DNA from: an uncultured Rhodospirillaceae bacterium
Lineage (GTDB): Bacteria > Pseudomonadota > Alphaproteobacteria > UBA9219
NCBI GenBank assembly: GCA_964559415.1
Contig: CAZLIG010000001.1
Span: forward strand, 1 to 37,390
Reading direction: 5' to 3'
DNA: 37,390 bases
Shown here: positions 7,535 through 32,359 of the stretch, piece after piece
Layout: every line of letters begins with the position of its first letter
Position numbering within the stretch: position 1 is the stretch's first letter
Program-made: the position numbers and the translations under genes
Notes under the pieces: model-generated
The model's input: only the letters and a program-made list of their open reading frames with translations
Databases searched by the model: none
Told to the model about the DNA's origin: nothing

Positions 7535-7547
7535 TTATCCCCATAAC
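7535..7547 (+). promoter_or_regulatory. DnaA-box-like site (TTATCCCCATAAC)
   Basis: Exact 13-nt inverted copy of 7254-7266. It lies 12 nt upstream of the DUF299 gene start. Confidence 0.5.
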
Positions 7548-7558
7548 TCATAGGTTCT

Positions 7559-13973: not shown

Positions 13974-14001
13974 AGATAAGAAGTTTTTTATGTCAAACAA
14001 G
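13974..14001 (-). promoter_or_regulatory. candidate RpoH (sigma-32)-type heat-shock promoter for hslVU
   Basis: The minus strand reads CTTG-N17-CTTATCT. This fits the alphaproteobacterial sigma-32 consensus as I recall it (CTTG-N17/18-CYTATNT). The -10 element ends about 50 nt upstream of the hslV ATG. Confidence 0.4.
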
Positions 14002-14148
14002 GGGGAACGGCCTCCTGTCCCACATTTGTATCTCTGGCGGCCCAATCTTCTTTTGACGAGGGGAAACTCGTTAAGCCCGGTTTTTGCCAAAAATTAGGTA
14101 AATGAGTGCATTGATGAAAAAACCGGAAACGGATAAAATGGCGAATCA

Positions 14149-14526
14149 ATGTTTAAGGGGGCCGCCTTGCAACAAAGCATCGGAATTTCTGCATGGCCGG
14201 TGATGGAACCGGAAATCATGGATACCGACAGGTATCTGACCGGAGCCAACGCGCCAGAGTTCGAAGAAGACATTTCTTTGTGCATACAAAGCGGCGCGCG
14301 GTCGATGATTTTGGACTGCAGTCGGCTAACCTACATGACATGCGCAGGCCTCCGCGTTTTTTTCGGTATAGCGCGTAAAATGTACGCAGCGGGCGGCACG
14401 CTTTTCATAAAGGGACTGAAAGGACAGCCGCGACAGCTCTACTTTGCGTGCGGCATGGACGTGGTGGTTCCCTTGGTAAAGGAAGAGCGCCGGTCGCCAA
14501 TTCGCTCCCGTCAGCCCGCCGCTTGA
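14149..14526 (+). CDS. single-domain STAS protein (anti-sigma-factor-antagonist-like)
   Basis: 125-aa ORF whose core SMILDCSRLTYMTCAGLRVFFGIARKMYAAGGTLFIKGL has the STAS layout (compare LDLxxLxFMDSSGLGVL of SpoIIAA). The start is uncertain, with alternative Met codons downstream. Confidence 0.6.
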   Translation: MFKGAALQQSIGISAWPVMEPEIMDTDRYLTGANAPEFEEDISLCIQSGARSMILDCSRLTYMTCAGLRVFFGIARKMYAAGGTLFIKGLKGQPRQLYFACGMDVVVPLVKEERRSPIRSRQPAA

Positions 14527-14573
14527 TTTTGTCGCAGTTTGTTCCCGTCTCTATTTGTTAGAACAGGTGTTTT

Positions 14574-15029
14574 ATGTCTTTTGTTTCTGTTGCCATTACA
14601 AAACTTCCCCATGCCGAAGGGCTCGATCTTCCTTCCTATGCAACAGAGCATTCCGCAGGCATGGATTTGGTAGCTGCCGTTCAGGCGGATCTTGTTATGG
14701 CTCCGGGTGAGCGCAAGTTGATCCCGACGGGCCTTTCAATTGCATTGCCGGAAGGCTACGAAGCACAAGTCCGCCCGCGCTCCGGCCTCGCGTTAAAAAA
14801 TGGAATAGCCGTTCTGAATAGCCCCGGAACCATCGACGCCGACTATCGAGGCGAAGTACAGATAATCCTCGCAAACCTCGGAAGCGACGCCTTCACGATC
14901 AAGCGCGGAATGAGAATTGCGCAGATGGTGGTTGCACAATATAGCCGGGTATCGTGGCAGCAAGCCGATCAGCTTTCGGAGACAAAGCGCGGCGCAGGCG
15001 GCTTTGGATCGACCGGTACCGGCGCTTGA
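14574..15029 (+). CDS. dut: dUTP diphosphatase
   Basis: All five dUTPase motifs are visible ([40 protein letters not shown]). Confidence 0.95.
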
Positions 15030-15520
15030 TCGCCGCCAACAGCGATCACATATCGCGGCGGATACAAGACATTTCTTGCGCTTTTCTTCGGATCGAACAA
15101 AACAGTCAACCTTTTAGGATGAACCTCCTCGCTTGTCCTGGTCGATACTTTTCCCGAGATGCGAAGGCCACTGTCGTCAAAAAAATCGTAGGCGAGACTT
15201 AAAAAATTTTTACCAAGGATCTGAAACGCTTCTTGATCACCAATGAGGATAGCTTGAGTTGTCTGCCCCCTGGAAACCAGCATCATCTCCCTGTAAAATT
15301 TGGAGAGAAGAAAAACCCAAAAAACCGCAAACAAGGCCGCGTAAAAAAGAAGCCCCATCGAGATGACTCCGCGTGTTTCATAAAGAAGCGCCGCGTATCC
15401 CCCGCACAAAATCCAGACAGTAAGACAAGAAAGAATCTCAACAAAAGCCAGCACGCGCGGCTTAGCTTTCCGAGGAATTTGCTGCCTCAGTTCCTTGGGG
15501 GGCATCCACTCCGGAATCAC
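14969..15520 (-). CDS. membrane protein, DUF3592-like (two TM helices plus a small beta domain)
   Basis: 183-aa ORF starting 19 nt downstream of the SPFH gene stop. It has two hydrophobic helices ([43 protein letters not shown]) followed by a soluble domain. The family call is tentative. Confidence 0.5.
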
Positions 15521-15539
15521 GCGGCGCGCTCCGCAGGCG

Positions 15540-16397
15540 TCATTTCGCCCTGCTCAACAAACCGCGAACGGCTTCCTGAATGTCGGCAGGAATAATAACG
15601 AACTTGCCGTTCGCCGTTCCCGACATCTTTTCCAGCATCCTGATGTACTTTTCGCCGAGGAGGTAAGCCATCGGGCCATCCTTCTCGCCAATAGTTTCGG
15701 CAACTTTTCTGATAGCTTCCGAAGATGCTGCGGCCAGCGTCACCTGAGCCTCGGCATCGCGTTTGGCGGATTCAAGTCGCGCATCGGCCTGAAGGATCAT
15801 GGACTGCTTTTCGCCTTCCGCCCTCGTCACCATCGCCTTGCGTTCACGTTCAGAGGCAGCTTGCATCTCCATGGCCTTCTGCATCGAAGCGGAAGGCTTA
15901 ATGTCCTGAATTTCAACGGACTTTACGGTCAATCCCCAATCCATGACTTCCTCGGCGATGCTCTCGCGCAAGCGAGCCTTGATTTTGTCGCGCGACGACA
16001 GCGCAACGTCGAGTTCCATTTCGCCGACGATAGACCGAAGAGCCGTCATGATGAGATTACGGATGCCATCGGCAAAGTTCACGATGCCATAAACCGCCTT
16101 GACGGGGTTCGTAACCTTCACAAACGCAATCGCGTTGACGATTAGGAGTGCGTTGTCCTTGGTAATGACCTCCTGCTGAGGAACGTCAAGCATGATATCT
16201 TTGGTGATAACGCGGCTCGCGACGCGATCAAGATAGGGGATCATAAAATTCAGGCCGGGCAAAAAGGTACCAAAGTACTTGCCCAGACGTTCAACAACCC
16301 ATTCCTCGCCCTGAGGCACGATCCGTACCCCGCGCATGATCGTAACGACAGCGAATATAACGAGGACAATGGTAAAGAGCGTCCCGCCTGTGATCAT
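15540..16397 (-). CDS. SPFH/band-7 (stomatin-like) membrane protein
   Basis: N-terminal TM segment, then the SPFH core (VPQGEEWVVERLGKY, DVPQQEVITKDNALLIVNAIAFVKV, the LRSIVGEMELD block) and an Ala/Glu-rich coiled coil. It is paired with an upstream NfeD gene. Confidence 0.9.
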   Translation of the reverse strand: MITGGTLFTIVLVIFAVVTIMRGVRIVPQGEEWVVERLGKYFGTFLPGLNFMIPYLDRVASRVITKDIMLDVPQQEVITKDNALLIVNAIAFVKVTNPVKAVYGIVNFADGIRNLIMTALRSIVGEMELDVALSSRDKIKARLRESIAEEVMDWGLTVKSVEIQDIKPSASMQKAMEMQAASERERKAMVTRAEGEKQSMILQADARLESAKRDAEAQVTLAAASSEAIRKVAETIGEKDGPMAYLLGEKYIRMLEKMSGTANGKFVIIPADIQEAVRGLLSRAK

Positions 16398-16409
16398 TTT
16401 CGATCTCCC

Positions 16410-16853
16410 TTAGGCTCTGGTAATTTTTAAAAGGCTTCCCTCGACACTGACAACCTTGACGCGGCTTCCTGCTTCGATCTTCTCGTCAGCGACGCACTCC
16501 CAGACATCCGAGCCAATCAACGGCGTCTGAAATCGAACTTTAGCCTTTCCAAAAGGCTTGATGTCGTTAATAAGCAAACCCACCTCGCCCACGGCCTCTG
16601 CCGAGGAGCGTCCGGCTTTGATCTTGTGCTGATGCGGCTGAAAAACCTTGAACCACAAGACAACAAGCCCGATCGATGCCGCCATCCAGACAAGAAGCTG
16701 CGCGGTAAAACTTATTTCTGGTAAAAGAACCAATAGGATAGCAACGATAAGGCCCCCGAGGCCGAACCAGATCACGAAGAAGGCGGGCACGAGAAGCTCG
16801 GACACAACCAGCAAGATGCCGACGATTGCCCAATGATACCATTCTAATTGCAT
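16410..16853 (-). CDS. NfeD-family membrane protein
   Basis: 147-aa ORF with three TM helices and a C-terminal OB-like domain (GKAKVRFQTPLIGSDVWECVADEKIEAGSRVKVVSVEGSLLKI). This is the classic partner immediately upstream of an SPFH gene. Confidence 0.85.
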   Translation of the reverse strand: MQLEWYHWAIVGILLVVSELLVPAFFVIWFGLGGLIVAILLVLLPEISFTAQLLVWMAASIGLVVLWFKVFQPHQHKIKAGRSSAEAVGEVGLLINDIKPFGKAKVRFQTPLIGSDVWECVADEKIEAGSRVKVVSVEGSLLKITRA

Positions 16854-17061
16854 GAAGAGACGATGGCCTGTGAGCTCTTAAAAATTGATGAACAGCGGGT
16901 ATCCTAAGCCCAAAACGTGTGAAAAAGAAGAATCTTCTGGCAAAAACATGGTATTTTGTGCATAAGACCGCTTGGTTATGCAGAGCGCATAAACCGGCGT
17001 CGGCACACTGGACGACATCCTGGTCCCGGCGATTTCACAACAACTAATTAAGGAGTTCCCG

Positions 17062-19849: not shown

Positions 19850-20599
19850 ATGAAAGTTCTCGTCACCGTAAAGCGCGTCATCGACTACAACGTCAACATC
19901 CGCATCAAAGCAGATAATAGCGGTGTCGAGACAGCCAACGTCAAAATGTCCATGAACCCGTTCGACGAAATCGCCGTTGAAGAAGCGGTCCGTCTGAAAG
20001 AAAAGGGCATCGCGACCGAAACCGTCGTTGTGACCATCGGCCCCGCCGCTGCTCAGGAAACGTTGCGTACAGCCCTCGCGATGGGCATCGACCGCGCCAT
20101 CCATATTCCCGTGGACACCGAAGTTCAATCTCTCGGGGTTGCCCGCGCACTGAAAAAAATTGTGGAAAAAGAAAAGCCCGATCTTGTTATCCTGGGCAAA
20201 CAAGCCATCGATCAGGAAAGCAACCAAACAGGGGCTCTTCTCGCAGCACAACTTGGCTGGCCTCAAGGAACCTTCGTCTCAAAACTGGAGGTGGTGGACG
20301 GCCAAGCGAAGGTTACCCGCGAGATCGACGGCGGCCTCGAAACCGTGTCGCTTAAGCTCCCTGCTATCATCACGGCGGACTTGCGCCTGAATACCCCGCG
20401 CTTTGCGACGTTGCCCAACATCATGAAGGCGAAAAAACGCCCCTTGGAGACAATTCAGGTCGCCGATCTCGGTGTCGATTTGTCCCCGACAATCCAGATA
20501 CTGAAGGTCACGCCTCCTCCCGCGCGGAAAGGCGGCATCAAGGTTGCCGATGTCGCGGCGCTCGTCGAAAAGCTTAAAAACGAAGCAAAAGTGATTTAA
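19850..20599 (+). CDS. etfB: electron transfer flavoprotein beta subunit
   Basis: [15 protein letters not shown] start, then [11 protein letters not shown] and [14 protein letters not shown] blocks. The ATG at 19850 is preferred to the track's GTG at 19841. Confidence 0.93.
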
Positions 20600-20631
20600 C
20601 GACCGTCGCATATAGTTCGAAAGGAAATCTC

Positions 20632-21558
20632 ATGCCCACACTAGTTGTCGCTGAACACGACCATAAATCCCTCAAGCCCGCAACGCTAAACACCATAACA
20701 GCAGCCGCGAAGCTAGGCCCTGTCACGGTTCTCGTTGTCGGACTTGACGCCGCAGGGGCCGCTCAAGAAGCCGCCTCCATCCAAGGCGTGTCGGCAGTGC
20801 TTCACGCGGACGATGCGGCCTACGCCAACTTTCTCGCCGAAAATGTCGCCGCGCTTGTCTCAAAGCTCGCGCCCTCATATTCGCACATCCTTGCTCCCGC
20901 GACGAGCTTCGGAAAGAACGTTCTGCCCCGCGCCGCCGGACTCTGCGACGTCGCTCAAATCTCGGATATCATCGGCATTGAAAGCGAAGACACCTTTGTT
21001 CGGCCAATCTATGCGGGCAACGCTATCGCCACCGTGAAATCCACCGACAAGATCAAGTTCATCACGGTGCGCGGCACAGCCTTCGATAAGGCGGCCAAAG
21101 GCGGCAGTGCGCCCATCAAAAAAATCGAAGGGGCTGGAGAGTCGGGCCTATCAACATTTATCGGCGCGGAACTCACAAAATCGGAGCGTCCCGAACTCAC
21201 GGCAGCGACCATTGTCGTCTCGGGCGGACGCGGCTTGGATTCCGCAGAGAAGTTCAAAGCGACATTGGAACCCCTCGCCGACAAGCTGAAAGCAGCCATT
21301 GGCGCATCGCGCTCAGCGGTGGATGCGGGCTTCATATCGAACGATTGCCAAGTTGGCCAAACCGGCAAAATTGTCGCTCCAAATTTATACATAGCCGTCG
21401 GCATCTCGGGCGCTATTCAGCACTTGGCAGGTATGAAGGACAGCAAAACAATCGTCGCGATCAACAAAGACCCTGACGCGCCGATCTTCGCCGTGGCCGA
21501 TTACGGCATTGTCGGAGACTTGTTCACGGTCGTCCCAGACCTGATGAAAGCTCTTTAA
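20632..21558 (+). CDS. etfA: electron transfer flavoprotein alpha subunit
   Basis: C-terminal FAD-binding blocks ([45 protein letters not shown]). Confidence 0.93.
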
Positions 21559-21573
21559 TGAGAGAGCATTAGG

Positions 21574-21601
21574 AAAGGCGGCCTTCGGGCCGCCTTTTTT
21601 G
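21574..21601 (+). terminator. rho-independent terminator after etfA (could also serve the convergent HAD gene)
   Basis: Stem GGCGGCC/GGCCGCC with a TTCG loop, flanked by AAA on the left and TTTTTT on the right. Confidence 0.8.
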
Positions 21602-21603
21602 TA

Positions 21604-22521
21604 TCAGATAGGAGCCGGACGATGAAAGTGCCCCGCGATTTTGTTTATTTGTGCACGAACCTGAGTTGCAGTCGCTGCGGGGTAAACCCCGGTCAAAGGA
21701 TTCCCGTTGAATTCGAGACTTGAGACATTGTCCGATCCGACCCAAACAACCGGAACGCCAGCCCTGTATGCTGCAATGACGCCCGACTTTCCATCCTCGC
21801 AAACGCCGGAAGCAGCCCTTATCCGCTCTATGGTTCCCTCGGTAGGTTGCGAAAACCCCATCAGCAACGCCGTTTTTCTAAGCCCAAGATTATATGAAAA
21901 GGGATGGGGTTTTTTGTGCTCAAGAGAGATTTCTTCGGCAGCAACAATGAAATCCCAGCTTCGACCGACTTTATCCAACACGGTCATGTTTGTGATAAAA
22001 ATCGGATCGCCCAAGCTTCCCGTGACCGCGCCGACAATCCAATTCTCTTCGTGCATCTCTTCAATGATTTCTTCAATGCCTTCGCGAGGCCGCAGAAGAT
22101 CTCTGTTTCTAATAAAACCGCTAAGATGCATGGCACGAATAGTCGCAATTTCAGCCCGCATTTCCTCTGCTCCGGAAACGCCCTTCGCATTTTCGGAACC
22201 CTGCTTGCCGATAATCCAGCACGCGATCACGGCAGGATCTGAACCCCGCAAATACTGCCGCGCCATTTTCATGCTGCCGTCATCCTGCAGAACGGATATG
22301 TCGTGCAGTTGGTCGAACATCTCGTCCGTCAGCCTTACGCCGTAAGCTGCGGCGGCATCGATCCACGCCTGAACGTGAACCGGCTCGTTTTCCACAGTGC
22401 ACCCGTCAATATCCCAGTGCCAAGCACCTTGATGGAGAAACATGTCTCGATATTCCGGTGCGGAAGCTCTGGACGATGCCAAATAGTCTTCCAATCCGGC
22501 AGGAGCCAAAGAGGCAGTCAT
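21604..22521 (-). CDS. HAD-superfamily hydrolase with an enlarged cap region
   Basis: Motif I WDIDGCTVENE (DxDGT), motif II GAVTGS, motif III KKPHP and motif IV EDGKSGVIAAYRAG. About 110 residues lie between motifs I and II. Confidence 0.7.
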   Translation of the reverse strand: MTASLAPAGLEDYLASSRASAPEYRDMFLHQGAWHWDIDGCTVENEPVHVQAWIDAAAAYGVRLTDEMFDQLHDISVLQDDGSMKMARQYLRGSDPAVIACWIIGKQGSENAKGVSGAEEMRAEIATIRAMHLSGFIRNRDLLRPREGIEEIIEEMHEENWIVGAVTGSLGDPIFITNMTVLDKVGRSWDFIVAAEEISLEHKKPHPFSYNLGLRKTALLMGFSQPTEGTIERIRAASGVCEDGKSGVIAAYRAGVPVVWVGSDNVSSLEFNGNPLTGVYPAATATQVRAQINKIAGHFHRPAPI

Positions 22522-22537
22522 GGGTCCTCAGGGGCTA

Positions 22538-22567
22538 GGGGGCGGTAAACAAAAGTTTACCGCCCCC
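22538..22567. other. perfect 13-bp hairpin (GGGGGCGGTAAAC-AAAA-GTTTACCGCCCCC) between the EamA and HAD genes
   Basis: Read directly from the sequence. Neither strand has a U-tract after it. On the minus strand it ends next to the GAGGA Shine-Dalgarno of the HAD gene. Confidence 0.6.
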
Positions 22568-22591
22568 AAGAGCCCTGAATTTTGACTTGTG

Positions 22592-23509
22592 TTAATCGAT
22601 ACGCGGCATTGTGCGGCTGATGCGCCTCTCTTGCCGGAAGAGATATAAAGCGGAGGCGATAATCACCACCGATCCATAGAGCAGCGGCGGTTTCGGAACA
22701 TCCCCCCAAACCAAGAACCCCAAAAGCCCGCCCCAAATAATTTGAGTATATTGAAAAGGAGCAACCGCAACCACCGGGGCGTGCCTGTAGGCCTGCGCGA
22801 GCAAAGTCCACCCGATGCCGCCCAAAGCGCCCGCTCCGCACAAAGCCGCAAAAACCCAAGGTTCCATCGCAACGATGCCGCTCCAGCAGCATAAGAACAT
22901 TCCGCCGATGGCCAGGATAAGCCGCGAATAAAAAGCGGTGCTTTCGCACTTTTCTTTATCGGACACCAGCCGGAGCAGAAACATCTGTGTCGATGCGGCA
23001 AGCATATTTCCCGCGAGGAAAACATAGGGAACCCACGACCCTTCGTTCACAAAAAGATGGACGGGGTTAACGGCAATCGTCACTCCGACAAATCCCGCTA
23101 CAATGGCTAGCCCTCGCTTCCAGCCAATAACTTCCCTAAGGACAACCGATGCCATGCACGCCACTACCATCGGCGCGAGAAACGAGACAACGTACATATT
23201 TGCGAGCGGGAGCAGCGGTAATGCGGCCATCCAAAACGCGAACCCGACAAACTGCAATAACCCCAAGACAACCAGACCGTACCATCTATTGGGCTTCAAG
23301 TGATCAAGGGTGCCTCTCGCAGCAGTAAAGGCAAAAATTGTCGCCATGCTGGCAACACCGCAAATCAGCAGAATCTCTCCCTGCGGCACCCCGGCCTCCC
23401 GCGCCATTTTTAGAAAAGCATCGCTGATCGGCCACCCAATGAAAACAAGCAGGGCCAATGAAGCAGCGAGAGGATAGTTTCTTTTCGGCTGCAGAAAAGG
23501 GAAGGGCAA
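22592..23509 (-). CDS. EamA/DMT-family transporter
   Basis: 305 aa with about 10 hydrophobic helices in two repeated halves, a typical drug/metabolite transporter layout. Confidence 0.82.
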   Translation of the reverse strand: MPFPFLQPKRNYPLAASLALLVFIGWPISDAFLKMAREAGVPQGEILLICGVASMATIFAFTAARGTLDHLKPNRWYGLVVLGLLQFVGFAFWMAALPLLPLANMYVVSFLAPMVVACMASVVLREVIGWKRGLAIVAGFVGVTIAVNPVHLFVNEGSWVPYVFLAGNMLAASTQMFLLRLVSDKEKCESTAFYSRLILAIGGMFLCCWSGIVAMEPWVFAALCGAGALGGIGWTLLAQAYRHAPVVAVAPFQYTQIIWGGLLGFLVWGDVPKPPLLYGSVVIIASALYLFRQERRISRTMPRID

Positions 23510-23521
23510 AAAGAACTCCTG

Positions 23522-26254
23522 TTACTGGGCGGCTCCGTGACAGTGTTTGTACTTCTTGCCGGAACCGCATGGACAAGCCGCATTGCGCGGGGTATCGCCC
23601 CATGTTTCCGGGTTGGCTGGATCAAAAGGTTGGTTTTGCAAGGGCACAACGCCCATCGGACCGCTCCGCACGACCATGCCCTCTGGGAGTTCCTCGCCAA
23701 AAGCTCCTGCCGCCTCGGCGCCGCTCAATTCGGTCATGGCGGCTGCGCGCTGACGCTCAAGAACCTCTTCCATCGACGGCAACTGCATTCCCGCGTGCAT
23801 CAACGTCTTTGTAACCTTCTCCTTAACGGCGCCACGCATCATTTCGTAAAGACCAAAGGCTTCGCGGCTGTATTCGTTCAGCGGGTCGCGCTGACCATAG
23901 CCGCGCAAATGGATGCCCTGCCGCAGTTGATCGAGCGCCAAAAGGTGCTCCTTCCAAACCTGATCGAGCGTTCCAAGAAGCGCCGCTTTTTCGGCATGGC
24001 GCAAAGCGCTCGGATCGATGATCGAAGTCTTTTCTTTAATCTTATCTTCGGCGGCTTTCCTAACCCGCTCTTCGATCTCGACTTCGCTGGCGTTACCTTC
24101 CGCTGTCCATTCCTGCACGGGCAGATCAAGCGCCAAAACGTCCTTAATGTGTTCCTGCAATCCCTCAATATCCCACTGTTCGACGTAAGAATGCGGCGGA
24201 ATGGCGCTCCGTACCATGTCGTGAATGATTTCCTCGCGAAACTCGCGAATGAAATCGGAAACATCGCCCGAAGCCATAATTTCACGGCGTTGCTCATAAA
24301 TGACCTTGCGCTGGTCGTTCATGACATTGTCGAACTTGAGCAAGTTCTTGCGGATGTCGAAGTTGTGAGCCTCGACCTTCTGTTGGGCCTTCTCCAGCGC
24401 CGTGGTAATCCACGGGTGCGCAATCTTTTCGCCGTCACGAAGCCCGAGCCTCGCAAGAATGGCCTGAGTCTGATTGTGCGCGCCAAAAATGCGCATTAGA
24501 TCGTCTTCAAGCGATAGGAAAAACATCGAAGCGCCCGGGTCGCCCTGACGTCCGGAACGACCGCGAAGCTGGTTATCAATGCGGCGCGATTCATGCCGTT
24601 CGGTGCCGATCACGAACAAGCCGCCCGCCTTGCGAACCTGCTCGCGAGCCTCGTCGATTTCCTTGCGCAAAGCGGCCACGGTCGCAGCGTCGGGTTCGCC
24701 CTGAGCTTTCAACTCACCGAGGCGCGCCTCGAAATTGCCGCCAAGCTGAATGTCGGTGCCTCGGCCAGCCATGTTGGTGGCAATGGTGACAGCCCCGGGC
24801 CGACCGGCTTGGGCGATAATCGTGGCCTCCTGATCATGGAAACGCGCATTGAGAACGCTGTGCGGAACGCCCTTCTTCTTCAAAAGACCCGCAAGAAATT
24901 CAGACTTTTCGATAGACACTGTGCCGACAAGCGTCGGTTGCCCGCGCTTCCGGCAGTCGTCGATCAGCTTAATGATCGCCTCGTTTTTCTCCGCAAGGGT
25001 GCCATAAACCTCGTCGTTCATGTCATTGCGAATGACGGGGACATTCGTGGGAATCTCGACGACTTCAAGATTGTAAATCTCAGCAAACTCGGCAGCCTCG
25101 GTTAAAGCCGTCCCCGTCATGCCCGAAAGTTTCGGATACAGGCGGAAGTAATTTTGGAAAGTGATGCTTGCCAGCGTCTGGTTTTCGCGTTGAATCGAGA
25201 CGTGCTCTTTTGCTTCCAAGGCTTGATGAAGCCCATCCGAATACCGGCGGCCTTCCATCATGCGCCCCGTGAACTCGTCAATGATAATAACCTTGTCGCT
25301 CTTGACGATATAATCGACGTCTCTGGCGAACATCTTATGGGCGCGGAGCGCCTGATTGACATGATGAACGATCGACACGTTGGCGGGGTCGTACAAACCG
25401 CTGGAGTTGGGCGCAAGCAGTCCGACCTCTCCAAGCAAGACTTCGATACGTTCGTTACCCTGTTCTGTCAGAACGACGGTTTTTGCCTTCTCGTCTTTCT
25501 CATAGTCGGTCGGGTCCAGCTTGGGAATAACTTCATTGACGCGGATATAAAGCTCGGACGAGTCTTCTGCGGGGCCGGAAATAATCAACGGCGTGCGCGC
25601 CTCGTCGATCAAAATACTGTCCACTTCGTCCACGATGGCGAAGTTAAACGCGCGTTGAACGAGGTCTTCCTGCGCAAATTTCATGTTGTCGCGCAGATAA
25701 TCAAAGCCAAATTCGTTGTTTGTGCCGTAGGTGATATCGGCGGCGTACTGAACTTTACGCTCGTCGTCATCGAGCCCGTGGACGATGCATCCCACCGAAA
25801 GGCCCAAAAAGTTGTGTATCCGCCCCATCCACGCGCTGTCGCGACGGGCAAGGTAGTCATTGACCGTGACGATATGCACGCCCTTACCTGTCAAGGCGTT
25901 TAAGTAGCTAGGCAGAACGGCGACGAGAGTTTTGCCTTCGCCGGTGCGCATTTCCGAAATCTTGCCTTGATGCAGAACCATCCCGCCGCGTAGCTGAACG
26001 TCAAAGGGCCTTTGGCCCAAAACACGCCAGGCGGCTTCGCGAACTGTCGAAAAAGCCTCGGGAAGCAAAGAATCAAGTGTTTCCCCTTTCGCCAAACGCG
26101 CTTTGAACTCGTCGGTTTTGCCGCGAAGCTCCTCATCGGATAAGGACTTAAATTGCGGTTCCAAAGCATTAATCTGCGCAACGACAGGGGTCTGAGCCTG
26201 CAACGCGCGGTCATTGTGGGAACCAAAGATTTTACGGACGATGGAAGCAATCAT
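23522..26254 (-). CDS. secA: preprotein translocase ATPase SecA
   Basis: 910 aa with Walker A MRTGEGKT, the [19 protein letters not shown] block and the C-terminal zinc motif [14 protein letters not shown]. Confidence 0.98.
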
Positions 26255-26357: not shown

Positions 26358-26392
26358 ACAAAAAACCCTTCGGCGCATTGCGCCGAAGGGGG
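26358..26392 (-). terminator. rho-independent terminator of the dotH-dotG-dotF-like operon
   Basis: On the minus strand there is an 11-bp stem CCCTTCGGCGC/GCGCCGAAGGG with a 3-nt loop, followed by TTTTTTGTG. It lies 21 nt downstream of the stop at 26413. Confidence 0.82.
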
Positions 26393-26412
26393 GCGATTTC
26401 TTAATGGAAAAC

Positions 26413-27492
26413 TTACTGAACTGAACCTTTTGTTCCGCGCACGATCCAAGAATCGCCCTGAGGCTCAATAGCGGTAACTTTACCAACTCCCGCAACCATA
26501 TCGCCCACGTGAACTTTCTTCAGCTCTTTGGAGTCTGCGCTTTGGGAAATCCAACCTTCCCCGGTAGAGGCCGCGCGCAACACCCAAGAAGGGGTTGGCT
26601 CAGCTTTGGCAACAACCTTGCGTGTCTTCGGAGCGGACGGCTTAACGACCTTTTTGACCGGGGCGGGTGCCGCTACCTCGTCGAATGCCAAGTCATCGGC
26701 AGCTTTGCTAGGCGCAGCCTTACGGCCCAAACGCTTTTCAAGCTTGGCTATTCTCTGATCGAGGCTCTCCGCCGAGACGGGCGCTCCATCAATGGCCGAA
26801 AAGTGAGACAGCCTTTCGTTAGCCTGATCGAGTGCCTTTTGAAGGTCCTCTACGCGCGCCGATAACGCTTCGATTCGGGTGTCGGTATCGCTCTTGACTT
26901 GCGTTCCAGAGCCGGTGGTTTGCGGGGCAATCGCCTGCGAAGAAACCGGCGGCGGCAACGGCACAGCCTGAACGGCTCTAGAGCCGACGTTGGCGGCAAC
27001 AACGACTGGCGCAGCAGGAGCGGGTTCCTGCGGATTGGCAGGAAGGGGCGGTGGCGCTGGTATAGATGAAGTGGTGGGCGCTGCTCCCGATGGTTCAACG
27101 GCTGGCGCGAAGGAAGGAGCCGGTTCCGGAGAGAGAGGAGGAACGCTGCTGACCTGCGTAGCCTCGGGAAGAGTTGTTTGAGGCTGAGGCACTTTTTCTG
27201 CAAAAGAAGGCTTCGGACTCTCAACGCCGGGCAAAGAGTCCCCGTTCAGATGCCACCAAGCCGCGCCACCGAGCAAAGCAATGCCGCCAAGAGCAACGGC
27301 AACGGGAAGAAGGGCCGATCTTTTGGCCGGGACGACTATTTGCTCTTCGGGCGGAAGCCCGTCGGAAAATTCGTATTCGGAGGGAGCCTCGGCAGGCGCC
27401 TCCAGAGAAGAGTCTTCAGTGTCTTCCAAGGCCGTCTCAGACGACATATTTTCGTTGCGATCTTGCGGCCCTGAGCCGAAGTTATCTGTCAT
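26413..27492 (-). CDS. DotF/IcmG-like (IncI TraP-like) bitopic inner-membrane protein of a type IVB secretion core complex
   Basis: AGGAG Shine-Dalgarno 6 nt before the ATG at 27492. The layout is an acidic N-terminus, one TM helix (LLPVAVALGGIALLGGAAWW), a Pro/Ala-rich linker of about 110 aa, a coiled coil (RIEALSARVEDLQKALDQANERL) and a C-terminal beta domain. That domain (WVLRAASTGEGWISQ..VHVGDMVAGVGKVTAIEPQGDSWIVRGTKGSV) resembles the DotF C-terminus as I remember it. Its position directly after a dotG-like gene supports the call. Confidence 0.6.
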   Translation of the reverse strand: MTDNFGSGPQDRNENMSSETALEDTEDSSLEAPAEAPSEYEFSDGLPPEEQIVVPAKRSALLPVAVALGGIALLGGAAWWHLNGDSLPGVESPKPSFAEKVPQPQTTLPEATQVSSVPPLSPEPAPSFAPAVEPSGAAPTTSSIPAPPPLPANPQEPAPAAPVVVAANVGSRAVQAVPLPPPVSSQAIAPQTTGSGTQVKSDTDTRIEALSARVEDLQKALDQANERLSHFSAIDGAPVSAESLDQRIAKLEKRLGRKAAPSKAADDLAFDEVAAPAPVKKVVKPSAPKTRKVVAKAEPTPSWVLRAASTGEGWISQSADSKELKKVHVGDMVAGVGKVTAIEPQGDSWIVRGTKGSVQ

Positions 27493-27528
27493 TACAAGCT
27501 CCTGCGTTTAACGGACGCGCGCGTCCGA

Positions 27529-29037
27529 TCAATAGTTTTGCTGATGGACGTAAGGCAAGTTGCCGGTGCGTCCAGAGGTGAGGCGGCCGCTATTATACCC
27601 ATTATTCATCCCGGTATAAGGCCCATTTTGATAGGAACCCCCCGACGCGCCGCCACTATAATCGGCTTCGCCCGGAGCATAGTTGACATTATACCCTTGC
27701 CCCGACATATCGGCAGCCGACTGAGCCACCGACTTTGGATCTCTCACGGCGGTCAGAAAGAACATTCCAAAAGGCGTGCCCGGCGCGACGCGGACCAACG
27801 GCTTGGTCAAGTTCGCCTGCTGTTGGAAAAACTGGCCGACGGTGTTGGCGGCCTGCCCCATGCCAGAATACATGCCTTGTTTGAACCCGGATTCGGCCTG
27901 TGTCGTAATGGTAACCGAGCCGTTTGTGGTGATGGAGGTCCCGCCTTGGCCCATCGCCTGCCCAACGCCTTGGATAAAGGAGGCTGCGGCGGGGAGAACA
28001 ACCCGAGAGAAATAACGTTCATCCACTTCAGTCGCCATGCCGCCAAGCGTGGTCTCCGGATCAAGCGCAATGGCGTTGATGGGATAATCCTTTCCGTTTC
28101 GGTCCGCCAAAGAGAATTTCATAACCAGATATTTCTCATACCCATCGGCAACTTGAAACGCCCCAATAGCGCGTGCACCGGTAAGCGGGCCGGAAACGAT
28201 CTGGGCGAGGATTGGACCGGGGACGTCCGAATTAGCTTCCGACAAAAGCTGCGCATAGCTAACGGTTCCCGCAGGTACGATGGGTTTCTGTTCTTCCGCC
28301 ACAGGGCTTCCGCCTGCGCCGGTCGCGCCGGATGGAATGTCTCCGCCGCCGCCGATGATTCCGTCGCCCCCGCCCCCGCCACGCCCTGCGGCGCCTTTAT
28401 CGTCCTTGGTGGATACGGTAACGGCCTTCATCCCTGTAGCCTGCCAGCTCGACATCAACTGGGTAAGCTGCTTTTGCATGGCCTCGGCAAGCGAGTTGTC
28501 AAAGCCGTCGCCGCGCCGCTGCTGCACGGCCTGCTGCTGTTGCTGCTGCATCTGCCGCCGCAGCTGGTCGGTCTCGGCGCGAAGCTCCTTCATAGGATCG
28601 GCTTCTTTTCCGAGTGAGTTGTTGTTCGAGACTTCGCTCGCTTGGCCGATGGGCGTGGGAATAGCGCTTCCATTCGTATCAAGGGCGCGCTGAATGCGTT
28701 CATTGTTGGCAAGTTCGGTTTGCTGACGATGATAGGGCGATGCCGCACCGCCCGGCGCTTCCTTGATAGCGGGCGGGCGCGCGAGATGCGCAACTTCCTT
28801 GCTCGTATCGTTGTGGCCGAAGAATTTAATGGCCGCCGCGCCAACGGCGAAAACGCCGACCACCAGCGCGGTAAACTTGAACAACGGATTCGTATGCCAT
28901 GCCTCGGCAATATTGCCGATAGCGCCGCTTTTCGAGGACGACTCGTCCCCCGGACCCATTTCTTCGATTTCCGAAAACTCGTTCTCGTTGTTGTTCTCGC
29001 TGTTATCGCCGTTTTCGTTTTCGAAATTAGTTGTCAT
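27529..29037 (-). CDS. DotG/IcmE-like protein (VirB10/TrbI-domain T4SS core component)
   Basis: N-terminal cytoplasmic acidic tail and one TM helix (FKFTALVVGVFAVGAAAIKFF). The C-terminal VirB10/TrbI-type domain reads PAGTVSYAQLLSEANSDVPGPILAQIVSGPLTGARAIGAF ... INAIALDPETTLGGMATEVDERYFSRVVLPAAASFIQG ... VRVAPGTPFGMFF. The start overlaps the upstream gene's stop by 11 nt. Confidence 0.8.
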   Translation of the reverse strand: MTTNFENENGDNSENNNENEFSEIEEMGPGDESSSKSGAIGNIAEAWHTNPLFKFTALVVGVFAVGAAAIKFFGHNDTSKEVAHLARPPAIKEAPGGAASPYHRQQTELANNERIQRALDTNGSAIPTPIGQASEVSNNNSLGKEADPMKELRAETDQLRRQMQQQQQQAVQQRRGDGFDNSLAEAMQKQLTQLMSSWQATGMKAVTVSTKDDKGAAGRGGGGGDGIIGGGGDIPSGATGAGGSPVAEEQKPIVPAGTVSYAQLLSEANSDVPGPILAQIVSGPLTGARAIGAFQVADGYEKYLVMKFSLADRNGKDYPINAIALDPETTLGGMATEVDERYFSRVVLPAAASFIQGVGQAMGQGGTSITTNGSVTITTQAESGFKQGMYSGMGQAANTVGQFFQQQANLTKPLVRVAPGTPFGMFFLTAVRDPKSVAQSAADMSGQGYNVNYAPGEADYSGGASGGSYQNGPYTGMNNGYNSGRLTSGRTGNLPYVHQQNY

Positions 29038-30295
29038 GTTCTTCTTCCCGCAAAATTTGAGCGCGAACGAGAGCGCCGTTGTCCGACAGCAACAGAACGG
29101 GCGCAGAGCCTACTTCATAAACGGAAGTGCCGTCCGGAGACACCATGCTCGCATTCCATGCCGGCGAGAGCAGCGTGAGCGGTGTGCGTAAATAGACCTT
29201 CTCGCCGATAGCCCAAGCTTTGGTGCGAGCGTCGAGCCCGCCTACCTTGATGCGCTTGGCGCCGGCAGGTGGCGTGGTTTCAAGAAACTGGGCTAGCGTG
29301 CCGTCACCGGCCTCGGGCCGCGAGGCGCGGTCGACGAGTTGAGGCTTGGCTTGAGGCCCGGATTTATCGATGCGAGCGTCATACCGCAAATCAACGGTCG
29401 GGCCGCCGGAAGAGAGCTTGAAAATGACGGGCGTAGCAAGATTTTTGAGCATCACCGAAAGGTTACCCACGCCAACGCGCGTCAAAGGCATGATGCGAAC
29501 AACGTGCGATCCGGCTTGAGTGGAAGAGACTTCGAAATTCCCGCCGATGCCGACATCGAGAATGGGCCAAGGTTCGCCGGTTGAATCCACAATGGTAACG
29601 GTGGTGACAAAACCCGCATTCAGATTGATCTGCGGCGGCGTAACGCCCGGATCAAGGGACACGGGAATCAGCCGCGTGATCCCTTTGGGCGTACCTTCAT
29701 AAGGGGGCTGCGCTGCGTGTTGAGTCTGTTCCAGCCTCTTCATAAAGTCGCGGATCTGATCCGGCGACAAAGGAAGAAGGCCGCTCGACGCCCTCTGGAA
29801 CGATTTAGCGTTATAGTCGCGTTCCTTTTTCAAAGAATCTACATCCGCATCGACTTGCGCCTGAAGAGCGGCGGCCGTGGCTTGTTCGGCAAGCTTCGTA
29901 GGGTCGTTTGAGAACGCTGAAGCAGGAGGAGGCGCGAGGATCTCGATACCCGAAGAACTCGGAACAATCTTTTTCTGTGCCGTATTTTGGGCGACAGTTG
30001 TGGGCAACGAAGGTTCAGGCACCGATACTCCCGATGTGGAGACGGGCCGCATGGGATAGGTGTCGGCTGCATAGCCTTGAGCAGGCGGCGCGCTGGGCGT
30101 AATCGCGCCTGCGGAAGCAGCATCGTTGGATGAATTCGGGATGGCAACGCCCGAAGGGGCGCCAAAGGCAAAAGAGCAAGTCCCTGAAAAAGCGAGCAAC
30201 GCGCTTGCCGTTAGCAGGAAGAATTTCCTCCGTCTTTCGAGGAGGTGAAGCGGCGGGTGCAGCAAAGGACATCTCCGGAGCAAAAGCTCTATCAA
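29027..30295 (-). CDS. DotH/IcmK-like (IncI TraN-like) T4BSS outer-membrane core component
   Basis: Signal-peptide-like N-terminus (RRRKFFLLTASALLAFSGTCSFAFGAP). A central conserved block matches the IcmK/DotH core from memory: LPLSPDQIRDFMKRLEQTQHAAQPPYEGTPKGITRLIPVSLDPGVTPPQINLNAGFVTTVTIVDSTGEPWPI ... GNLSVMLKNLATPVIFKLSSGGPTVDLRYDARI. The frame has no ATG start; the track start at 30295 is TTG. A TTG at 30265 preceded by GGAGA at a 6-nt spacing is the more likely start. Confidence 0.75.
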   Translation of the reverse strand: MIELLLRRCPLLHPPLHLLERRRKFFLLTASALLAFSGTCSFAFGAPSGVAIPNSSNDAASAGAITPSAPPAQGYAADTYPMRPVSTSGVSVPEPSLPTTVAQNTAQKKIVPSSSGIEILAPPPASAFSNDPTKLAEQATAAALQAQVDADVDSLKKERDYNAKSFQRASSGLLPLSPDQIRDFMKRLEQTQHAAQPPYEGTPKGITRLIPVSLDPGVTPPQINLNAGFVTTVTIVDSTGEPWPILDVGIGGNFEVSSTQAGSHVVRIMPLTRVGVGNLSVMLKNLATPVIFKLSSGGPTVDLRYDARIDKSGPQAKPQLVDRASRPEAGDGTLAQFLETTPPAGAKRIKVGGLDARTKAWAIGEKVYLRTPLTLLSPAWNASMVSPDGTSVYEVGSAPVLLLSDNGALVRAQILREEEHDN

Positions 30296-30339
30296 TAGAA
30301 TCTTCTTGTTTGACCACAGGAAAGTTAATAGTACGTTTA

Positions 30340-30369
30340 CTTATACAGTCCGTTTATTCCCTAATTCAA
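30340..30369 (-). promoter_or_regulatory. candidate sigma-70 promoter of the dotH-like operon
   Basis: The minus strand reads TTGAAT-18 nt-TATAAG. It lies about 45-75 nt upstream of the candidate start codons, in the 147-bp divergent intergenic region. Confidence 0.35.
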
Positions 30370-30442: not shown

Positions 30443-30844
30443 ATGCCAAACCTTCACGTGGTCCTTCTTTACGCTGGAATATTGGGGCTTTTTTTAATGG
30501 TTCTCTCGTTCAATATGTTGAGAGCCTGGCGTCAGGACAAAGGGGCAAGGGGGGGAAATCGAGAGCTTTTGCGAGCCGAGGCCTTGGTCTCGAGCTTCGG
30601 GGAGTATGTGCCGCTGGCCCTGATACTGCTTGCCGTGGGGGAAATGGCTGGCATGCCCCCGGAGGCTTTGCACCTGCTTGGATCTGGCCTTGTCGCGGCA
30701 AGACTCATGCACGCGTTCGGCTCCAACTATACGTGGAGTTCGGACTTTCTCAGATTTGCTGGCGCGCAACTGACGTATCTCGTCATCAGCATCGCAAGTT
30801 TTTCCTGCCTGATGTTTTACGTAGTGCCGAGTATGCCCCGATAA
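30443..30844 (+). CDS. MAPEG-family inner-membrane protein (YecN-like)
   Basis: 133 aa, aligning by eye with E. coli YecN (LRAW..G..GG..ELLRA.....FGEYVPLALILLAVGEM.G ... AARLMHAFG). AAGAGGA Shine-Dalgarno before the ATG. Confidence 0.8.
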   Translation: MPNLHVVLLYAGILGLFLMVLSFNMLRAWRQDKGARGGNRELLRAEALVSSFGEYVPLALILLAVGEMAGMPPEALHLLGSGLVAARLMHAFGSNYTWSSDFLRFAGAQLTYLVISIASFSCLMFYVVPSMPR

Positions 30845-32359
30845 CTAATCCCGCTTAATCGGATCGAAAATCTCGGGCTCCGTTGCAGGGCTTGTCTCCT
30901 TGCCTTCGTCGAAATGCGCGGTTCTAAGAAGCCGCAGCAACAATTCGACGTCTTCCCTAAACGAAGCGTCATAGGCCGAAAGCTCTTCGATTTTGCGCAC
31001 GGCGTGAATAACCGTTGTATGATCGCGCCCCCCAAACTTGCGCCCGATCTCCGGAAGGCTGCGCGGCGTCAATTGCTTGGCTAGATACATCGCGACTTGC
31101 CTCGGTCTAGCGACAGCCCGCGACCGCCGGGCGGAATGCATATCCGCGACTCGAACGTTGTAATGCTCCGCGACCTTCTTCTGAATCTCGTCAATCGTTA
31201 CGCGGCGTTCCGAGGCGCGCAACATATCGGAAAGAACTTCTTGCGTCATCTCAAGGGAGATTGTGCGACCAACGAGTTGGGCATGAGCAACAATCCTGTT
31301 AAGGGCCCCCTCAAGTTCGCGCACGTTCGACGCGATCTTATGAGCGAGGAACTCCATAACCTTGTCCGGCACCGGGCAACCAAGCTTCTCTGCTTTCGCG
31401 TGAAGAATCCCCAATCGCAATTCGTAGCTAACAGGATGCAAGTCGGCCACCAAGCCCCAGCCCAGTCTCGACCTCAACCGCTCTTCCATGCGATCAAGGT
31501 CTTGGGGTGACTTGTCCGCAGATATAATGACCTGCCGGTTGCGATCTACCAAGGCATTGAAAGTATGAAAGAACTCTTCCTGCGTGGAATCTTTGCCGCT
31601 GATGAACTGCACATCGTCGATCATCAAAACATCAACAGAACGGAATTGTTCCTTAAACGAAACGGTATCCCTGAAGCGGAGGGCACGTACGAATTGGTAC
31701 ATAAACTTCTCCGCCGACATATAGATGACGCGTCGATGCGGGTAATTTTTGCGGATATGCCACGCTATCGAGTGCATTAAATGCGTTTTACCCAAACCAA
31801 CGCCGCCATAAAGGAAAAGCGGATTAAAAGCCGGATTCTCCGTATCTGCGACGCGCCGGGAGGCGGCATAAGCCAACTCGTTTGATTTTCCAACGACGAA
31901 ATTGTCGAATGTGAACCGGGAATCAAGATCCGCTGACAGATCCCCAATAAAGCTCTCCGGGGCTGAAGAAGCAGGGGGCAGAGGCCGACCTATAGGCGCC
32001 AACGGCGTTACGGCAGCGGCGTCAATGGCCGTTTTGGCCTGTGCGGCCTTCGAGAGTGGAGATAACACAGAAAATGTAACAGCTCCCTGAGGCACGATTT
32101 CCTGCCACATGGAAAGAATGGCTTCGCCGTAATGAGCCTCGACCCAATCGCGCATAAAGCGCGTGGGGAGTACGAGCGCGGCGCAGTCCGAACCGGTCTT
32201 GCTGTCGTGAACGACCTCGCCCGTCATGGGCTCAAGCCATCTGCGAAAAGCGGTTTCACCAAAACGGATACGAAGAGAAGATCGAAGGCTACTAAAGGCC
32301 GCCTCGGGATTTTCGGAATCATCTTCCTTGGAAATCACGTTCGATAGAACCTTCATCAC
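30845..32359 (-). CDS. dnaA: chromosomal replication initiator protein DnaA
   Basis: AAA+ Walker A GGVGLGKTHL, Walker B VLMIDDVQF, the sensor block SNVRELEGAL and a C-terminal DNA-binding domain (GRKFGGRDHTTVIHAVRKI). Confidence 0.98.
   Translation of the reverse strand: MMKVLSNVISKEDDSENPEAAFSSLRSSLRIRFGETAFRRWLEPMTGEVVHDSKTGSDCAALVLPTRFMRDWVEAHYGEAILSMWQEIVPQGAVTFSVLSPLSKAAQAKTAIDAAAVTPLAPIGRPLPPASSAPESFIGDLSADLDSRFTFDNFVVGKSNELAYAASRRVADTENPAFNPLFLYGGVGLGKTHLMHSIAWHIRKNYPHRRVIYMSAEKFMYQFVRALRFRDTVSFKEQFRSVDVLMIDDVQFISGKDSTQEEFFHTFNALVDRNRQVIISADKSPQDLDRMEERLRSRLGWGLVADLHPVSYELRLGILHAKAEKLGCPVPDKVMEFLAHKIASNVRELEGALNRIVAHAQLVGRTISLEMTQEVLSDMLRASERRVTIDEIQKKVAEHYNVRVADMHSARRSRAVARPRQVAMYLAKQLTPRSLPEIGRKFGGRDHTTVIHAVRKIEELSAYDASFREDVELLLRLLRTAHFDEGKETSPATEPEIFDPIKRD

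Follow-up and report, generated by a model that had tools for sequence, protein, structure and literature searches.

[quoted passage not shown] Searches of the literature on alphaproteobacterial and Holosporales Dot/Icm or T4BSS found no account of the lineage studied here, and a review of the Holosporales points to the T6SS instead. The closest known systems share a gene order, icmK(dotH)-icmE(dotG)-icmG(dotF) in the icmTSRQPONMLKEGCDJB region of Legionella and Coxiella and traN-traO-traP in the IncI plasmids. In the rvh T4SS of Rickettsiales, the genes of one machine are located in several small islets amid housekeeping genes and are stably inherited. We analysed a stretch of 37,390 nucleotides (the window) from an uncultured alphaproteobacterium, in which three co-oriented minus-strand genes form a compact unit (26413-30265) in the canonical icmK-icmE-icmG order with translational coupling. 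The trio is probably an islet belonging to a Dot/Icm-type T4BSS that is dispersed and vertically inherited, an export machine with other parts encoded elsewhere. Its host is alphaproteobacterial and does not belong to the Legionellales, and the trio is severed from dotI/dotJ upstream and dotE/dotP/dotN/dotO downstream and lies between secA and dnaA, with a MAPEG gene on the dnaA side (Table 1).

Table 1. Features of the dotH-dotG-dotF-like operon (window positions)
Feature	Position	Strand	Remarks
Candidate sigma-70 promoter	30340..30369	-	-35 TTGAAT 30364-30369, N18, -10 TATAAG 30340-30345
Invariant 25-nt block CTATTAACTTTCCTGTGGTCAAACA	30307..30331	-	between candidate -10 and ribosome-binding site
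Gene 1 (dotH), maximal ORF	29027-30295	-	422 aa
dotH/icmK	29027..30265	-	likeliest start TTG 30265, 412 aa, N-terminal signal peptide
dotG/icmE, short form (ORF, gene 2)	27529..29037	-	502 aa; overlaps dotH by 11 nt
Probable dotF/icmG (ORF, gene 3, dotF-like)	26413..27492	-	359 aa
Intrinsic terminator of the operon	26360..26390	-	stem 26366-26390: 11 bp, 9 G-C pairs, 3-nt loop; then T6

The initial annotation had described a single three-gene transcription unit with overlapping first and second genes, arranged as in Legionella, Coxiella and IncI plasmids, ending at a strong terminator and lying between secA and dnaA amid housekeeping genes free of mobile-element signs and of any further T4SS component. 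All of this was borne out: the open reading frames, the overlap and the G-C-rich terminator stem followed by TTTTTT delimit the unit, and the overlap is kept in every related locus, dispersed or contiguous. A Pfam scan of the other ORFs of at least 150 aa that do not merely overlap annotated genes found the trio to be the sole T4SS genes in the window; all the remaining scanned ORFs were housekeeping or ordinary cellular genes, except the ORF at 3335-3994, which had no Pfam match. Searching the window by tblastn with DotI, DotJ, DotE, DotP, DotN, DotO and DotM from a complete locus returned nothing, and neither DotC nor DotD is encoded within it. No integrase or relaxase domains were detected by the ORF scan, tRNA and Rfam scans of the window were empty, no repeats were found in it, and the GC content of the trio (0.54-0.59) is similar to that of the flanks (0.53-0.56).

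The product of gene 1 is firmly identified as DotH/IcmK, a VirB9-like protein in which both the periplasmic-ring (PR) and outer-membrane-cap (OMC) domains are present, and in this the profile search, phmmer and the fold comparison with the Legionella core-complex structures agreed with the initial annotation. It matched Pfam PF12293 at 1.5e-72 (244 bits; cut-off 25) and L. pneumophila IcmK (6x62) at 6e-48 in phmmer. An AF2 model built from a 64-sequence MSA (pLDDT 75.6) matched DotH in 7muc at a Foldseek E-value of 4.5e-26, with TM scores of 0.71 for the PR domain against 7mue and 0.83-0.84 for the OMC domain against 7mud and 6x62; VirB9 homologues ranked next after the DotH structures. The homology to Legionella DotH thus extends across both structural domains. 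A GGAG motif at 30273-30276 precedes the TTG codon at 30265 and both are kept in related loci, so DotH is most likely 412 aa long with its start at this codon. The database gene call P0001, a DotH of 331 aa, is too short when compared with this conserved start.

Gene 2 is likewise firmly assigned, as the initial annotation had read it, to DotG/IcmE with an N-terminal membrane anchor and a C-terminal VirB10/TrbI domain. The protein has an acidic N-terminus and one transmembrane helix; a Q- and G-rich linker leads to the VirB10/TrbI domain (residues 254-427), and a G/Y/N-rich tail of 70 aa follows. It was above the cut-off for Pfam TrbI (2.6e-14, 53.9 bits; cut-off 35), and residues 153-429 aligned to residues 768-1043 of L. 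pneumophila DotG (E about 1e-23, phmmer), i.e., to its C-terminal VirB10 domain. The match to NCBIfam IcmE/DotG (5.7e-47, 160 bits) did not reach the equivalog cut-off of 750, since the protein has no long N-terminal repeat region; it also differs from Legionella DotG, which has 1048 aa, in carrying the G/Y/N-rich tail. The NCBIfam TraO model scored lower (2.2e-24, 86 bits; cut-off 225).

The third protein is probably DotF/IcmG, judging from sub-threshold profile matches and synteny. It shows a DotF-like architecture, in which an acidic N-terminus is followed by one transmembrane helix, a Pro-rich linker and a coiled coil, with a conserved beta domain of ~60 aa (WVLRAA...VGD...GKVTAI...G.KGS.Q) at the C-terminus, but it is longer than Legionella DotF and only remotely matched. 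Its top NCBIfam match was IcmG_DotF_IVB (E 1.9e-4), which was also the top match for the orthologues in L034 (2.4e-10), L004 (2e-7) and L009 (1.4e-5), all of them, like that of the window protein, below the cut-off of 200 bits. In contiguous loci its counterpart sits between dotG and a traQ/dotE-like gene. The C-terminus could also be aligned to that of IncK2/Z TraP (hhalign E 0.02), and the score against NCBIfam TraP was 14 bits (cut-off 135). Neither the protein by itself nor a profile of 7 sequences matched PDB sequences beyond coiled-coil noise, and a single-sequence AF2 model of residues 190-359 (pLDDT 64) had no Foldseek match below E = 3. Of the initial assignment, therefore, the canonical position and the recurrent weak profile matches speak for DotF/IcmG, while a PDB sequence or fold match did not emerge.

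The promoter proposed upstream of dotH is present in the sequence but was not called by a generic consensus scan. In the alignment, a pair of a -35-like and a TATAA[GA]-like element spaced by N18-19 was found at the same position upstream of seven of seven orthologous loci, and the candidate has phylogenetic support because this position is kept; it may accordingly be regarded as a candidate promoter of the operon. Downstream of it, the 25-nt block occurs once in the window as compared to zero copies expected from shuffles, and it is invariant in the upstream-region alignment. All six other dnaA-arrangement loci covering the upstream region contain its core, 38 other loci all lack it, and it was not found upstream of the dotO and dotIJ islets. 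The block probably serves as an operator situated at the transcription start or immediately 3' of it. An RNA element upstream of dotH was rejected, as RNAalifold gave -0.21 kcal/mol and no covariation on the conserved region.

The initial annotation had suggested comparing the synteny in related genomes, and the arrangement does recur. A single uncultured clade of Alphaproteobacteria shows the order dnaA-MAPEG-dotHGF-secA in eight or more contigs or MAGs; dnaA-MAPEG-dotH-dotG-dotF-secA was seen whole in L001, L002, L004, L009, L010 and L043, and L003 shows dotH-G-F-secA, the stretch that its contig covers. DotH is 59-75% identical among these loci. Hundreds of metagenomic relatives are labelled Alphaproteobacteria. 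In a neighbour-joining tree of 128 DotH sequences, 52 belong to the clade that the dnaA-arrangement loci delimit, the stem of which is very short and without bootstrap support, and none of the 18 contiguous or DotO-linked DotH sequences fell inside it. The dN/dS ratio was 0.08-0.12 for each of dotH, dotG and the dotF-like gene, and the trio is under purifying selection. This bears on a further reading raised initially, in which the trio is a domesticated remnant, and on that of a decaying remnant of a lost T4BSS. The isolation of the trio from other dot/icm genes would fit such decay, but eight or more loci have intact ORFs, the translational coupling, SD sequence, start codon and promoter position are all kept, and the structure prediction is highly confident for both domains of DotH. 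A dN/dS of about 0.1 contradicts this reading and excludes it for practical purposes, and we give it hardly any probability.

Sister lineages retain the genes in contiguous form. Their canonical loci (L005, L014, L016, L024, L035) have the order dotI-J-H-G-F-E-P-N-O-M, by which the L/M-K-E-G-C-D-J-B order of Legionella is kept. In four of them (L005 on a 1.02-Mb ENA scaffold, L014, L016 and L024) the genes are orthologous, at 50-61% identity for DotH, 44-50% for DotG and 30-39% for the DotF-like protein, with the same 11-nt overlap. These loci differ from the window in carrying p200-dotI-dotJ upstream of the trio and traQ/dotE-like, p133, dotN, icmB and dotM genes downstream, and in lacking the 25-nt block. 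These contiguous sister-lineage loci are where DotM and DotN were encountered.

Two sister MAGs with the dnaA arrangement also encode IcmB/DotO on another contig. In GCA_028708035.1, the closest relative, IcmB/DotO P0208 is located on JAQVZU010000059.1 and dotHGF on JAQVZU010000002.1; in GCA_026225415.1, P0152 is located on JAMFSS010000009.1 and dotHGF on JAMFSS010000006.1. A third MAG, judged from neighbouring accession numbers, probably holds both dotHGF and IcmB. In both sister MAGs icmB is solitary and follows a phaR-like gene, and its product is 72-74% identical to IcmB of a contiguous locus; among the matches listed, IcmB was at least 68% identical across 120 clusters. The assignment of IcmB is based on JGI/NCBI names, its place in contiguous loci and its resemblance, over the full length, to genes of IncI-type and other plasmids; IcmB had no Pfam, NCBIfam or PDB match above threshold (P0152 had no PDB match), and the copy at L011:10001-12994 had only a sub-threshold NCBIfam match, to TraC. 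In L011, a P-loop protein of 377 aa is encoded close to icmB; it is not DotB, its matches being at Walker-A level only (E about 0.01). Solitary dotI-dotJ islets amid housekeeping genes were found in related sequences (L021, L042, L044). The DotI homology search recovered no DotI from the two trio-bearing MAGs, and the sole same-contig link, between DotI P0331 and DotH P0018 (dnaA arrangement, L043), is a coincidence of size, the longest contig being 124,240 nt for each.

Because close relatives keep other parts as separate islets, the trio is better seen as a piece of a dispersed system than as a stand-alone one. The initial annotation had regarded it as a stand-alone, three-gene-only module, and this view fails at the genome level, since the sister MAGs hold IcmB and related sequences hold dotIJ islets; its alternative reading of a scattered, rvh-like T4BSS is supported by the solitary IcmB/DotO in two MAGs of the same arrangement. 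For the genome of the window itself the evidence comes from the sister MAGs, in which IcmB is the one link within the same genome. A DotH-DotG-DotF scaffold spanning the periplasm and co-opted for another role, for example as an envelope tether or as a conduit serving a different machine, would agree with the trio having its own promoter, terminator and lineage-specific 25-nt block missing upstream of the dotO and dotIJ islets, with its deeply conserved housekeeping neighbourhood, and with the lack of any further T4SS gene in 37 kb. We consider such a scaffold very unlikely, as a full-length, highly conserved IcmB/DotO is kept by the same MAGs, dotIJ islets persist in related sequences, and the trio proteins are still similar to their counterparts in contiguous T4BSS loci and have gained no new domains. 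Moreover, outer-membrane localisation of Legionella DotH depends on the lipoproteins DotC and DotD.

A dispersed system could also serve conjugation, as the DNA-transfer apparatus (IncI-like, MPF-I) of an integrated element that has degenerated, rather than being a protein or effector translocator. The IncI1/IncK plasmids (R64 type; example L045) share the order of a dotI-like gene, traN(dotH), traO, traP and traQ, their TraO is about the same size as DotG of the window, homologues of DotH, DotG and IcmB occur on thousands of conjugative plasmids, and IcmB-like genes are present on alphaproteobacterial megaplasmids typed MPF_I by MOB-suite. We nevertheless regard this origin as unlikely. The best plasmid DotH match was 36% identical over 60% of the protein (the DotH core), on which ground a recently integrated plasmid was rejected as well, and the Dot/Icm models outscored the IncI models (IcmE 160 vs TraO 86 bits), with both TraO and TraP under their own cut-offs. 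The IcmL and IcmJ models were the best or only matches for the dotI and dotN genes of relatives. The window, in which relaxase, integrase, tRNA and repeats were not found and the GC content is like that of the flanks, has a chromosomal and syntenic context, and the arrangement has been passed on vertically throughout a deep clade. Effector systems such as rvh typically have their genes dispersed into housekeeping regions. The likeness to rvh lies in this organising principle of dispersed islets and is an analogy, as rvh is P-type (VirB/VirD4, type IVA) with duplicated components, whereas the system described here is I-type (Dot/Icm).

In a dispersed T4BSS, an ancestral contiguous locus dotI-dotJ-dotH-dotG-dotF-dotE-dotP-dotN-dotO-dotM... 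would have been broken up in the clade, with dotHGF becoming fixed between MAPEG/dnaA and secA, icmB/dotO becoming a solitary gene beside the phaR-like gene, and dotI-dotJ with a small upstream gene becoming another solitary islet. DotH would be secreted and take part, through its two beta-sandwich domains, in the periplasmic ring and outer-membrane cap, DotG would span from its inner-membrane anchor to the outer membrane, and the DotF-like protein would be an inner-membrane-anchored subunit of the periplasmic ring. These three would co-assemble with parts encoded elsewhere, presumably including DotB, DotC, DotD, DotL and DotA, and further islets would be expected in the genome of the window itself. 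The assembled machine would deliver macromolecules, in all likelihood proteins, to a target cell.

Provided that the machine is complete and active, these would be unrecognised environmental bacteria, probably manipulating protists or other cells, and they would offer a natural experiment on how a machine of 20-plus genes is co-ordinated after operon break-up. A bolder reading, which we put forward tentatively and think rather doubtful, is that a whole uncultured alphaproteobacterial lineage carries vertically inherited T4BSS islets (dotHGF by dnaA and about 19 kb from oriC, icmB by phaR, dotIJ behind a GcrA-like gene), the core islet under its own invariant operator, and has an undescribed, ancient host-interacting or cell-targeting lifestyle independent of the Legionellales. 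If so, cell-cycle or replication-linked control might extend to the machine.

The possibility had been raised at the outset that relatives carry a fuller, already annotated dot/icm set, and this proved partly true, as relatives hold more of the genes, to which PGAP and JGI had already given dot/icm names. For annotation, a dotHGF trio that stands isolated on a MAG contig is thus not to be taken for a stand-alone system.

In the best-supported reading of the sequence, the operon supplies a dispersed Dot/Icm-type type IVB secretion system (T4BSS) with three subunits of its core complex, and some other parts of such a system are seen in sister MAGs and related sequences. The three-gene minus-strand unit proposed in the initial annotation proved real: the ORFs, the 11-nt overlap of genes 1 and 2 and the intrinsic terminator behind gene 3 (11-bp stem with 9 G-C pairs, then T6) were all recovered, and genes 2 and 3 are 36 nt apart. 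The Pfam scan of the ORFs showed that the rest of the window carries housekeeping or ordinary cellular genes (gidAB, a GGDEF protein gene, rho, mreCD, pbp2, hslUV, dut, rpsO-pnp, etfAB, secA, dnaA, rpsT, bamB and der), except one 219-aa ORF with zero Pfam matches even at E 0.01. The tblastn search of the window with DotI, J, E, P, N, O and M also gave zero matches, and the earlier claims of no other T4SS component and of ordinary flanks without visible mobile elements both held; the GC content of the trio (0.54-0.59) is close to that of its flanks (0.53-0.56). The tRNA and Rfam scans of the 37-kb window found none. Three near-consensus DnaA boxes lie in an AT-rich gap (GC about 0.40) bounded by rho and a gene for an RP001-like kinase/pyrophosphorylase, with two more just downstream of it; the gap is the likely oriC and is separated from the trio by about 19 kb.

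Coordinates of the features in the window and in the compared loci
Feature	Sequence	Position	Strand	Remark
gene 1 (dotH) ORF	window	29027-30295	minus	maximal ORF
gene 2 (dotG) ORF	window	27529-29037	minus	ORF call
gene 3 (probable dotF) ORF	window	26413-27492	minus	ORF call
DotG tail	window	27529-27747		residues 430-502
Intrinsic terminator, stem	window	26366-26390		after gene 3
TTGAAT-N18-TATAAG	window	30340-30369		candidate promoter
25-nt block CTATTAACTTTCCTGTGGTCAAACA	window	30307-30331	minus	downstream of -10, at about +1 to +30
GGAG	window	30273-30276		upstream of dotH
TTG	window	30265		probable dotH start
secA	window	23522-26254		one flank of trio
MAPEG gene	window	30443-30844		other flank, divergent from trio
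dnaA	window	30845-32359		next after MAPEG gene
219-aa ORF	window	3335-3994	plus	between mnmG and PAS-GGDEF gene
AT-rich gap	window	6896-7558		likely oriC
DnaA boxes in gap	window	7258, 7392, 7535
DnaA boxes after gap	window	8146, 8393
GcrA-like gene	L005	7815-8417		before dotI
GcrA-like gene	L021	9514-9990		before dotI
GcrA-like gene	L042	9508-9993		before dotI
GcrA-like gene	L044	9508-9984		before dotI
Intermediate locus	L007	15854-18987		dotI to dotN, then groES/groEL
Mobile mystery protein A homologue	L011	21618-22088
Phage-integrase fragment	L012	1-439		contig end
IcmB-like gene	L046, Bosea sp. RAC05 pBSY19_1	13986-17021
IcmB-like gene	L047, Methylorubrum extorquens AM1 megaplasmid	20001-22937

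The gene 1 product is identified by profile, sequence and predicted fold as DotH/IcmK. It covers the full Pfam model PF12293 (1.5e-72) and matches L. pneumophila IcmK in phmmer (6e-48), and its AF2 model, built with 64 homologues as input, has a pLDDT >90 across both beta domains. In the structural comparison this model matches first the DotH chains from cryo-EM maps of the Legionella machine (7muc, 4.5e-26; TM 0.71 for the periplasmic ring and 0.83-0.84, with an rmsd of about 2 Å, for the outer-membrane cap), followed by VirB9, TrwF and CagX. The gene 2 product, which scores above the Pfam cut-off for TrbI and in NCBIfam matches IcmE/DotG (5.7e-47) better than TraO (2.2e-24), is by sequence a short-form DotG/IcmE, of which residues 153-429 match Legionella DotG 768-1043. 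Unlike Legionella DotG, it lacks the long N-terminal repeat region, and it carries a G/Y/N/S-rich tail of about 70 aa C-terminal to the VirB10/TrbI domain that has no equivalent there in the alignment; a C-terminal stretch is likewise unaligned in the DotG of relatives. The gene 3 product is only probably DotF, as a remote assignment. Its top NCBIfam match is IcmG_DotF_IVB (1.9e-4), as it is independently for its orthologues (2.4e-10, 2e-7 and 1.4e-5), all far under the curated cut-off; hhalign pairs the beta domain at its very C-terminal end with the corresponding end of an IncK2/Z TraP (E 0.02), and its counterpart in contiguous loci lies between dotG and a traQ/dotE-like gene. For gene 3 no match came from searching PDB sequences or from an AF2 model made from the single sequence. 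Thus the initial product names stand for DotH and DotG, and that of DotF remains probable from sub-cut-off matches and synteny.

The arrangement rpsT-dnaA-MAPEG-dotH-dotG-dotF-secA-EamA-...-etfAB-pnp recurs in JAQVZU010000002.1 (L001, DotH 75% identical to that of the window), a 585-kb JGI contig (L004), JAMFSS010000006.1 (L009), JARLJC010000370.1 (L010), Ga0265297_10000443 (L043) and the short contigs L002 and L003, the last covering the dotH-G-F-secA part. Approximate dN/dS values against L001 and L004, with dS near saturation, were 0.08-0.12 for each trio gene and 0.03 for secA. The conserved arrangement and low dN/dS argue that the trio is a functional unit inherited vertically, and they rule out both the domesticated remnant offered as one earlier alternative and a recent insertion. 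In the NJ tree of 128 DotH sequences, the loci with this arrangement define a clade of 52, the stem of which is short and unsupported; none of the 18 known contiguous or DotO-linked DotH sequences falls inside it.

The candidate promoter TTGAAT-N18-TATAAG is present as first described, although a generic consensus promoter scan did not call it; in seven aligned orthologous upstream regions, each has a -35-like/N18-19/TATAA[GA]-like pair in identical placement. Because the GGAG and TTG are both kept in this alignment, DotH is most likely 412 aa long with its signal peptide, and the 331-aa database call (P0001) was rejected as too short. The 25-nt block downstream of the -10 is invariant in 7/7 loci of the dnaA arrangement and was found in 0/38 other loci, among them contiguous T4BSS loci and the islets with dotO or dotIJ; it has no predicted RNA fold. 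It looks like a lineage-specific candidate operator, gained together with the new location.

The trio had been described as stand-alone, which is not supported at genome level, because two sister MAGs carry a solitary icmB on other contigs. With IcmB of the contiguous locus L005 as query, P0152 (74% identical) was located on contig JAMFSS010000009.1 of GCA_026225415.1, between a phaR-like gene and lysS, and contig 6 of the same MAG has the dnaA-dotHGF-secA arrangement. The MAG nearest to the window, GCA_028708035.1, carries P0208 (MDD4616979, 72% identical) on JAQVZU010000059.1, where it is also solitary after a phaR-like gene; DotH of this MAG (MDD4615615) is 1,364 accession numbers away. Accession proximity suggests a third such MAG (DotH MDR3425751, IcmB MDR3424077). 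The protein is called IcmB on the basis of its names in the source databases, its place in the locus and its similarity, along the whole length, to genes of thousands of IncI-type and other plasmids, rather than of a curated model. Traces of mobile elements occur near the solitary icmB islets: L011 encodes, 9 kb downstream, a homologue of 'mobile mystery protein A', and L012 ends in a phage-integrase fragment, but neither adjoins icmB.

The DotI metagenome scan and contig look-ups revealed three dotI-dotJ islets (L021, L042 and L044), each preceded by a gene for a 158-200-aa protein and otherwise neighboured only by housekeeping genes. DotI P0331 and DotH P0018 of the dnaA arrangement have identical sources and NCBI organism labels, and the longest contig of each is exactly 124,240 nt, which suggests that they share one contig. 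In more distant relatives (L005, L014, L016, L024 and L035; DotH about 50-61% identical) the genes are contiguous in Legionella order: p200 - dotI - dotI-like (dotJ) - dotH - dotG - dotF-like - traQ/dotE-like - p133 - icmJ/dotN - icmB/dotO - dotM. L007, from a 'Bdellovibrionales'-labelled MAG, keeps the genes from dotI to dotN together and continues with groES/groEL without icmB; its gene order represents an intermediate stage in the dispersal. Together with the solitary icmB genes, these islets and contiguous loci support the scattered T4BSS that was among the first alternatives. The protein ahead of dotI-dotJ is always present, in contiguous and dispersed loci alike, and faintly resembles GcrA, a regulator of the cell cycle (Pfam 1.4e-4; NCBIfam 0.01).

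The window DotH and DotG are members of the Dot/Icm (MPF-I) family, and the whole unit would work alike. DotH, which is VirB9-like, would be the subunit of ring and cap, DotG a VirB10-like one crossing the inner and outer membranes, and the DotF-like protein a ring subunit with an inner-membrane anchor, while the energising and inner-membrane parts, at least IcmB and DotI/J, would be supplied from separate islets. Since the dotH/dotG overlap is conserved, translation of the two genes is probably coupled, which would fix their stoichiometry. Export of protein into another cell is the default reading, by analogy with chromosomal, dispersed T4SSs; the Rickettsiales rvh system is similarly dispersed but belongs to a different T4SS class. 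The dispersed system could instead be a conjugation apparatus, as the plasmid-borne relatives of IcmB might suggest, but this is less likely because relaxase and mobile context are absent from the window and Dot/Icm models outscore IncI models.

The T4BSS has been treated as a trait of Legionellales, Piscirickettsia and Fangia (PMC8896642, PMC11338181), and a Holosporales review indicated a T6SS instead. Our literature search found no account of the present lineage or its dispersed dot/icm organisation. I-type components are nevertheless not unheard of in Alphaproteobacteria, because PGAP and JGI auto-annotations already name 'DotH/IcmK family', 'IcmB' and 'IcmL', and the M. extorquens AM1 megaplasmid is typed MPF_I by MOB-suite. 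Megaplasmids of cultured Rhizobium, Methylorubrum, Bosea, Martelella and Methylosinus carry IcmB-like genes (40-44% identity over 97-99% of the length). Within 14-20 kb of those in Bosea and M. extorquens there is no DotH, G, F, I, J, N or M, and Bosea has a T4CP-like gene 10 kb further upstream; these findings may point to another dispersed or divergent MPF-I system.
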